A stretch of 39,518 nt of DNA. Source: a virus. A program made the translations under genes and the position numbers. Shown in pieces: positions 6,226-6,303 of this stretch. The notes under the pieces are model-generated. The model ran no database searches. It saw only the letters and a program-made list of their open reading frames with translations, and was not told where the DNA came from. The number at the start of each line of letters is the position of its first letter. Position 1 is the first letter of the stretch. The stretch lies in UHGV virus genome UHGV-0040088. One strand, written 5' to 3'.

Positions 6226-6303
6226 AAACCATCCCACAATCCCCCACAAGTTTTTCTATTTTTCGCGTAGCAACGCGTAAACATGTATTCAGGAGTAAAC
6301 ATT

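Follow-up and report, generated by a model that had tools for sequence, protein, structure and literature searches.

The 39,518-nt virus genome UHGV-0040088, referred to as a whole as the window, carries a short repeat in the untranslated leaders of two late structural genes, the portal gene and a minor tail gene of the lambda M family (M). We report that this repeat is a real, selected, group-specific cis-element that is present in two copies per genome. The window derives from a phage of the mEpimmI group (mEp021, MagusPhagus), and its packaging and head region is 89–92% identical to that of the Escherichia phages MagusPhagus, mEp021, mEp044 and others. The mEpimmI phages were described in 2025 as Nus-dependent non-lambdoid coliphages and were reported to be as common as lambdoid phages in a human-faeces collection (PMC11893012). 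The explanation that we favour, at a little short of an even chance, is that the element is a cis-acting RNA leader stem-loop of the two late cistrons, with the RNA as its presumed active form and with a post-transcriptional role in processing, stability or translation. We see no tie to a new mechanism class; the element looks like a familiar sort of phage regulatory repeat. Late-gene control in the mEpimmI group has so far been described only as a 'Q-like antiterminator', and a selected, twice-used leader element offers a concrete entry to the partitioning of the long antiterminated late transcript, which is broken by terminators, toxin–antitoxin genes and homing endonucleases and still has to supply head and tail proteins in the right amounts.

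A preliminary description of the window had noted two 29-mers, at 6260–6288 (TTTTCGCGTAGCAACGCGTAAACATGTAT) and 18992–19020 (TTTTCGCGTAGGAGCGCGTAAAGATGTAT), as identical at 26 of 29 positions and as each containing a CGCGTA direct repeat. Both statements are borne out, and both copies lie on the + strand; the distance of 25–45 nt given there to the downstream gene is only approximate, since the element occupies −44 to −16 relative to the portal ATG (6304) and −55 to −27 relative to the M ATG (19047). With up to three mismatches allowed, the two 29-mers are the sole matches in the 39.5-kb window, and no match was obtained in 100 dinucleotide-preserving shuffles. The true extent is longer than first noted: local alignment pairs 6253–6291 with 18984–19023, with 35 of 39 positions identical and one 1-nt gap (score 53 compared with 16 ± 2 for shuffles), and gives the common block TTTCT(C)ATTTTTCGCGTAGNANCGCGTAAANATGTATNCA. 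The similarity ends sharply, as the 70 nt upstream and the 40 nt downstream are dissimilar between the sites. Copy 1 lies inside the 78-nt gap between the stop of the large terminase gene TerL (6225) and the portal start, and copy 2 lies inside the leader of the M-like gene; both belong to the coding strand of an untranslated leader and precede the Shine–Dalgarno (SD) sequence by 6 and 21 nt, respectively. No third or inverted copy was found at up to four mismatches in the 19 specified core positions, either in the window or in 44–45-kb stretches of mEp021, MagusPhagus and mEp044, of which those of mEp021 and mEp044 cover the immunity and Q regions; the minus-strand matches were the element's own quasi-palindrome only. 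An antisense target model was rejected because no inverted copy occurs in the window or in these three related phages. A 12-nt complement within the portal open reading frame (7103–7114), where synonymous sites vary freely in relatives, was attributed to chance, as was the 10-mer CGCGTAAACA at 4062–4071, for which about two such matches are expected by chance.

The preliminary description saw the element as reused at two module boundaries, and a search of the rest of the genome and of relatives found both junctions occupied in every close relative. An exact-pattern scan of IMG/VR returned the element in portal and M contexts only. Because that sample is selected by the motif itself, relatives were resampled via proteins (portal, 51 loci; M, 31 close loci), with the motif playing no part in the choice. 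All of the close relatives (about 50) carry both copies, exactly two per genome. The element was not found in phages whose portal is 56–60% identical (S107, Oslo, CobraSix) or in phages whose M is 65–70% identical, so that no deeper phylogeny is available for a covariation search. The site-2 region occurs as a prophage in 30 of 5426 complete E. coli genomes, the two most divergent of which retain the core. Bacterial genomes sampled at one per species gave chance matches only, in unrelated bacteria, and a metagenome scan anchored outside the element gave no new core variants. Three IMG/VR contigs of up to ~9 kb (L077, L090 and L117), which encode a single 2803-aa polyprotein and probably represent RNA viruses, carry GGTTTTTCCTGACCTTCGCGTA(G/A)NNTCGCGTAAACATACATTTT just past the open reading frame, a superficial likeness that was judged to be chance.

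Both copies are 3–15 times less variable than adjacent neutral sites. Nucleotide diversity at site 1 is 0.015 in the repeat (43 unique sequences), 0.241 at the third codon positions of the terminase gene, 0.188 in the C-rich spacer just upstream, 0.155 at the third codon positions of the portal gene and 0.003 in the portal SD sequence and ATG, while that of the site-2 core is 0.072 against 0.13–0.33 in the surrounding intergenic DNA and third positions. Such strong purifying selection marks the repeat as functional and not as a neutral scar. Within the element, (T)TTTCGCGTAG ... CGCGTAAA is invariant; free to vary are the triplet that separates the CGCG blocks, the base that follows AAA and several bases of the 'ATGTAT' tail, which at site 2 takes the forms GATATAT, GGTGTAT, GATGTAC and TATATAT.

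On the + strand, the element is predicted to fold as 5'-AUUUUU-CGCGU-[AGNN]-RCGCG-(U)-AAANAU-3', an imperfect hairpin of 11 bp at most, in which the variable triplet supplies the last two bases of the AGNN loop and the closing base. The 27-mers fold at −6.1 (copy 1) and −8.5 kcal/mol (copy 2), and the five core pairs have pair probabilities of 0.90–1.0 in the native leaders. For 20 site-2 leaders, RNAalifold gives the same hairpin, with 10–11 bp and the bulged U. Over 30 distinct sequences, 94.8% of cells are paired, compared with 24–83% when the 3' arm is slid; six of the 11 pairs vary, on one side only, and all of them remain standard pairs (C-G to U-G, G-C to G-U, A-U to G-U, U-A to U-G and U-G/U-A interchange). 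A 1-nt deletion in two contigs maps to the loop. All 30 variants give a + strand hairpin at −5.4 to −8.9 kcal/mol, and the complementary RNA folds more weakly in each of the 20 site-2 variants. We regard the predicted hairpin as plausible. A long-range fold that sequesters the SD sequence of the leaders appeared in single-sequence folds and was discarded, being absent from the consensus fold.

Of the roles that the preliminary description had suggested for the element (a late-regulator site, an RNA processing site or a recombination footprint), that of an RNA processing site, or an RNA element more generally, fits best. This is because both copies are sense-oriented in transcribed, untranslated leaders and form a conserved hairpin; because all observed stem changes are RNA-compatible; because site 1 offers a DNA-binding regulator nothing but passing polymerase; and because a Q-antiterminated, terminator-studded operon usually sets relative cistron output at the RNA level. 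In lambda-type late operons, differential cistron expression is typically set post-transcriptionally. The stem-loop would thus set the output of the downstream cistron after transcription and independently of upstream sequence. By one route, the transcript would be processed in the A/U-rich single strand that abuts the stem on its 5' side, and the new 5' end would then be capped by the hairpin as a protective stabilizer. By a second route, the hairpin would serve as an operator for an RNA-binding factor that tunes the translation of two low-copy assembly proteins. A more specific proposal, which we consider rather unlikely, is that both copies are operators of one dedicated trans-acting factor that co-regulates the low-copy portal and the tail-tip protein M; candidates for such a factor are a DNA roadblock protein and a protein of the phage or its host with specificity for the invariant UAG/UAAA bases of the hairpin. 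The portal nucleates head assembly. If true, the single factor would define a small post-transcriptional or stoperator-like regulon in the Q-antiterminated late operon of an enterobacterial phage.

Several observations weigh against the RNA stem-loop. The hairpin is small and its z scores are modest, at −1.4 and −2.3 for the 27-mers and about −0.2 to −0.6 in context. Among the 30 distinct sequences there are no two-sided compensatory changes, and the near-invariance of the stem leaves the shuffle control uninformative. Since CGCG is self-complementary, any CGCGTA direct repeat automatically has hairpin potential, and in seven of the ten site-1 variants the minus-strand RNA is slightly the more stable. 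Finally, the unpaired loop UAG, the bulged U and the AAA vary as little as the stem does, which a plain structural hairpin does not account for; the invariant unpaired TAG, T and AAA point to sequence-specific recognition, which is equally possible by a DNA-binding protein.

A DNA operator, bound by a sequence-specific phage or host protein that controls transcription into portal and M (as a roadblock located past the M promoter, for instance), is the main rival explanation, which we consider unlikely overall but by no means negligible, and the non-paired TAG and T-AAA, as invariant as the stem, speak for it. As DNA, the element can be read either as two CGCGTAR heptamers exactly 10 bp apart with a weaker, degenerate YRYRTA 10 bp further on, or as a 22-bp quasi-palindrome, TTTTCGCG-N6-CGCGTAAA, with CRP-like 5-N6-5 geometry. 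Only the triplet and one base after AAA are free, the pattern expected of spacers between phased repeats, and both stem variants strike the first base of a heptamer (C to T). Site 2 lies just downstream of an invariant TATAAT, the classic position of an operator, and there is precedent for DNA sites within phage operons, as mycobacteriophage stoperators and the repeats named ESAS occur in structural and non-structural operons (PMC9283540, PMC3203893). Nevertheless, just two copies are present per genome, and the lack of a copy in the immunity, Q or other restart regions does not match the operators of a repressor. Site 1 has no promoter to regulate, and no candidate regulator is found among the neighbouring genes. 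Furthermore, the natural 1-bp deletion between the repeats alters their phasing, yet occurs in two contigs, and conservation at the palindrome centre is one-sided (fixed TAG, free NNN), unlike in symmetric dimer sites. A stoperator was rejected, as no copy with up to four mismatches occurs elsewhere in the mEp021, MagusPhagus and mEp044 stretches and there are two copies only. An operator of the adjacent ParE-like toxin–antitoxin pair was also rejected: the element is placed ~115 nt before the antitoxin start, on the far side of the likely promoter, and genes of this kind are missing from site 1.

The TATAAT at site 2 precedes the 29-nt core of copy 2 (18992) by 20 nt in every relative and was missed by a consensus promoter scan because its −35 is poor. 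A minus-strand island separates the tape-measure protein gene (TMP) from M, so that M needs its own start signals, and it probably has its own promoter, judging from the TATAAT, with a start near 18978; from there, copy 2 would span about +7 to +46, with the hairpin covering about +13 to +39. The TATAAT was not accepted as part of an extended paralogy between the sites, as the flanks are dissimilar. At site 1 there is no counterpart of the TATAAT, and the consensus scan found no promoter-like or terminator-like site; the element there can therefore be read only as part of a read-through transcript. It is improbable, in our estimate, that the element is a late promoter or late-activator site at or just after which a phage late factor starts portal and M transcription. 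Both copies precede structural genes at module starts, M must restart after the minus-strand island, and AAANAT (e.g. 6279–6284) retains the two bases that matter most in a −10 hexamer, A at position 2 and T at position 6. However, the scan found a promoter at neither site; at site 1, there is no acceptable −35/−10 pair in or after the element without a start inside or past the SD sequence, and site 2 already has its invariant TATAAT upstream. The element is also absent upstream of the first late genes and of the restarts of TMP, gene L and the fibre gene, and late control in this group is by a Q-type antiterminator (PF03589 match; PMC11893012). The late-regulator site of the preliminary description thus finds little support: the element is missing from the start of the late region, from these restarts and from the mEp021 immunity and Q regions, and site 1 has no promoter.

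The suggestion of a recombination footprint holds in part as history and fails as an explanation. The usual triplet is CAA at site 1 and AAG, or a one-step derivative, at site 2; contig 2541047727_000007 has the site-2 triplet at site 1, and hence AAG at both sites, whereas contig 3300045988_076772 has the site-1 triplet at site 2, and hence CAA at both. In both genomes the triplet of the other site has been copied in while the flanking site-specific base is unchanged, which points to short-tract gene conversion between the copies. Gene conversion explains part of the similarity between the copies, but not the conservation across phages. That the repeat as such is a non-functional duplicate, a relic of module shuffling kept alike by gene conversion, would agree with the position of the copies at boundaries beside variable DNA (some phages have a ~70-nt insertion at site 1, and the island at site 2 differs in content), but we give this little credence: conversion within a genome cannot explain fixation in ~50 diverged phages while adjacent neutral sites vary 3–15 times more, and the strong purifying selection is not that of a neutral scar. 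Moreover, the repeat carries a cost, as crossing-over between its two direct copies would remove the 12.7-kb head and tail-shaft module.

A site for loading or recognition in processive antitermination, of the nut/boxB (N-like Gp17), ops (RfaH) or put type, would keep polymerase terminator-resistant through the interrupted late operon. In favour, the late operon is broken by minus-strand islands and holds several strong terminators, the element is a small leader hairpin, and mEpimmI phages rely on Nus factors and on three nut sites (PMC11893012). We nonetheless judge such a site very unlikely. The nutR1, nutR2 and nutL sites of mEp021 have a boxA, GCTC(A/T)TTAA, 8–12 nt upstream of a hairpin with a GNRA-like loop, but the element lacks a boxA, the sequence 5' of the copies being T-rich or C-rich, and its loops are AGCA, AGGA, AGAA or AGAG with a U-R closing pair, in contrast to the GCGA, GAAA-type and GGAAG loops of mEp021 boxB. 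Compared by eye with the ops consensus GGCGGTAGnnTG, the best register gives 5 of 12 matches (GTAGC only), and the element is far shorter than the two-stem put RNAs. Rfam gave no match at the gathering score in the window, and the two regions searched at E up to 10 gave one spurious snoRNA (E = 9.8). Other element classes were tried and, apart from the CpxR box, rejected. No intrinsic terminator was found by scan at either site on either strand, the T-run preceding the stem and the A's following it, and no sigma-70 promoter (−35/−10, 16–18 bp spacing) was matched in or just after the element at either site. The stem, of 11 bp at most with a bulge, does not suit an RNase III site, an interrupted duplex of ~20 bp. 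The CpxR box is a direct repeat, GTAAA-N5-GTAAA, to which most site-2 copies (GTAGA-N5-GTAAA, 9/10) and site 1 (GTAGC-N5-GTAAA, 8/10) show a likeness; about two chance matches are expected in the window, and the invariant CGC would be left unexplained. None of sigma-54, sigma-28, PhoP box, Tus-Ter, OxyR or AcrR-type sites fitted in a by-eye comparison. In NagC/Mlc operators, which are 23-bp quasi-palindromes, positions ±5,6 from the centre are invariably TT/AA (PMC4288165), whereas the palindrome here is 22 bp and has G/C at ±5,6 (CGCG arms).

The ATG at the end of copy 1 (6283) is in frame with the portal gene (6283–7677), as the preliminary description had stated, but the doubt that it raised about the start site can be settled against this codon. 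ATG 6283 has no SD sequence and the corresponding site-2 positions read ATA, GTG or ATG; since the ATG is not conserved there, it is not a start codon. By contrast, ATG 6304 has a canonical AGGAG SD sequence, and both are nearly invariant; judged from these signals, ATG 6304 is the real portal start, and portal annotations should begin there. In mEp021 (L001, ~22153), ATA TTG stands where all other relatives have the portal ATG. The mEp021 record (MH706966, coding sequence mEp021_52) starts the portal at the ATG of the element because the canonical ATG reads ATA, and either TTG may be the real start in this phage or the record may be in error. That the conserved ATG serves as an alternative portal start, or opens a mini-open reading frame in the site-2 leader (ATG TAT GCA ATA TGT AAC TTA TAG), is hardly credible: the portal frame and the mEp021 record would agree with it, but the mini-frame is gone in most relatives, in addition to the points above.

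In the stabilizer hairpins of the ompA 5' untranslated region and in the T7 RNase III sites, a conserved stem-loop in a leader or between cistrons makes the fate of the downstream cistrons independent of the RNA that precedes them; the T7 sites are processing sites reused at several gene junctions in one phage, with duplexes of at least 20 bp and internal loops. The present element resembles these as a leader or intercistronic stem-loop and differs in its stem of 11 bp at most. The PeSL cassettes of T4-type phages are repeated stem-loop regulatory sequences that lie at module boundaries by hyperplastic DNA and homing endonuclease genes and can mediate recombination between copies; they contain an early sigma-70 promoter and occur in many copies. 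The element shares with them the boundary stem-loop repeats and the recombination between copies, but its repeat has no promoter and two copies. The closest parallel in behaviour is offered by the extended start-associated sequences (ESAS/SAS) of Cluster K mycobacteriophages (PMC3203893), with stoperators and T7 processing hairpins less close. ESAS/SAS, too, are short repeats confined to one phage group, strongly conserved and set just ahead of gene starts in a single orientation, and consist of an imperfect inverted repeat with a variable spacer, for which RNA and DNA readings have both been discussed (PMC3203893). They differ in numbering 11–19 per genome, in lying in the non-structural half and in having 17-bp arms and an SD-containing 13-mer (PMC3203893), whereas the mEpimmI element has two copies in the structural operon and an 8–11-bp stem, has no sequence similarity to them and comes from unrelated hosts. 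Departures from the inverted repeat did not support RNA pairing in ESAS/SAS (PMC3203893), while here every one-sided change keeps pairing. The stoperators of Cluster A are also asymmetric, oriented sites in short intergenic gaps of operons, structural ones included, and can halt elongating polymerase, for which a copy just downstream of a promoter would be suited (PMC9283540, PMC6550527). They number 20–30 per genome and have the sequence of the operator at the repressor's promoter, compared with two copies here and nothing similar in the immunity region. Finally, the nut sites of lambda and mEp021 are, like the element, small GC-rich hairpins in transcribed leaders, few per genome and group-conserved (PMC11893012); they differ from it in having a boxA and a GNRA-like loop and in belonging to early rather than late transcripts.

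The coordinates of the copies, their predicted hairpins and the surrounding features are collected in Table 1.

Table 1. The two copies of the repeat and features around them in the window
Feature	Position	Strand	Remarks
Repeat copy 1, TTTCTATTTTTCGCGTAGCAACGCGTAAACATGTATTCA	6253–6291	+	In the TerL–portal gap
Repeat copy 2, TTTCTCATTTTTCGCGTAGGAGCGCGTAAAGATGTATGCA	18984–19023	+	In the M leader
Predicted RNA hairpin, copy 1	6258–6284	+	Core 6264–6268/6273–6277 (CGCGU/ACGCG), loop AGCA; outer A/U helix broken by bulge or mismatch
Predicted RNA hairpin, copy 2	18990–19016	+	11-bp stem, bulged U19010, loop AGGA, −8.5 kcal/mol
C-rich, G-poor variable spacer, TerL stop codon to copy 1	6226–6252	+	Sequence drifts, composition kept (alignment of relatives)
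Portal SD AGGAG (6291–6295) and ATG (6304–6306)	6291–6306	+	Nearly invariant; real portal start, judged from sequence signals
Invariant TATAAT with conserved G at −14	18966–18971	+	In all site-2 sequences; likely sigma-70 −10 for M (putative function)
M SD (GGGGG) and ATG (19047)	19038–19049	+	
TerL (large terminase)	4741–6225	+	
Portal, Phage_portal_3	6304–7677	+	Family assignment confirmed
M, Phage_min_tail (lambda M family), minor tail gene	19047–19400	+	Family assignment confirmed
Terminator-like hairpin, bidirectional, after TMP and before the island	17797–17819		
Minus-strand island separating TMP from M	17937–18877	−	Holds HNH-AP2 endonuclease, ParE-like toxin and 51-aa partner
HNH-AP2 homing endonuclease	17937–18461	−	
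ParE-like toxin	18449–18703	−	
51-aa partner upstream of ParE-like toxin	18722–18877	−	Probably antitoxin

The structural operon is interrupted by minus-strand islands. A toxin–antitoxin pair and a mobile endonuclease are located within the tail operon, in the island between TMP and M, the gene content of which varies among relatives. Strong hairpins resembling intrinsic terminators occur in the late operon at 11368–11388, 13684–13699, 14390–14407 and 17797–17819, following the major capsid, major tail, chaperone and tape-measure genes, respectively; they are consistent with Q-dependent read-through and attenuation. A lambda-type Q antiterminator is present in the mEpimmI group (PF03589), and together with strong terminators within the late operon it implies that the late genes are read as long antiterminated transcripts. 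In one IMG/VR relative (L055, reverse complement, 8724–9198), the gene of a 157-aa HNH-AP2 endonuclease lies between the site-2 leader (after ...ATGTAACTTAT) and M, so that the endonuclease uses the element-containing leader; that an element-marked leader tolerates the insertion of a gene downstream, here a homing endonuclease, could be useful for phage engineering. At site 1, a subset of relatives (L137, L154, L158, L162, L163, L166–168, L172 and L177) has the ~70-nt insertion directly 3' of the terminase stop, upstream of the C-rich spacer and the element, and it contains the palindrome CTTCGAAAAATTTTCGAAG. The portal homologue of the E. coli O157:H7 LSU61 prophage (L307, 2754–4127) is named 'anti-CBASS protein Acb1 family protein' by RefSeq and that of another prophage 'DUF1073 domain-containing protein'; this naming is likely to be an annotation artefact.

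Past its TAA, the TerL frame runs for 14 more codons up to the TAG of the element (KPSHNPPQVFLFFA*; 6223–6270), and a mini-open reading frame at 4000–4068 closes with the same 'FFA-stop' ending (TTCTTCGCGTAAACA; region 4000–4073), which is probably a coincidence. Between the lysis cassette and the small terminase gene, a tandem array of ~10 tiny hydrophobic open reading frames is found at 3314–4248 (+), each of 22–37 aa with apparently one transmembrane helix and most with their own SD sequence; many very short hypothetical proteins are annotated at this place in relatives. Palindromes resembling the CRP consensus occur in three + strand restart regions that follow minus-strand islands, at 15409–15424, 20568–20581 and 28482–28488. 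Before the tape-measure gene, AGAGATCTAGATCACA matches TGTGATCTAGATCACA at 14 of 16 positions (15409–15424); before gene L, GTGACGGCGATCAC stands directly 3' of an extended −10, TGGTATGAT (20554–20562); and before the tail-fibre gene, GATCACA adjoins TGGTAGAAT (28492–28500). From their sequences, the three palindromes may be operators of a shared regulator or CRP sites.

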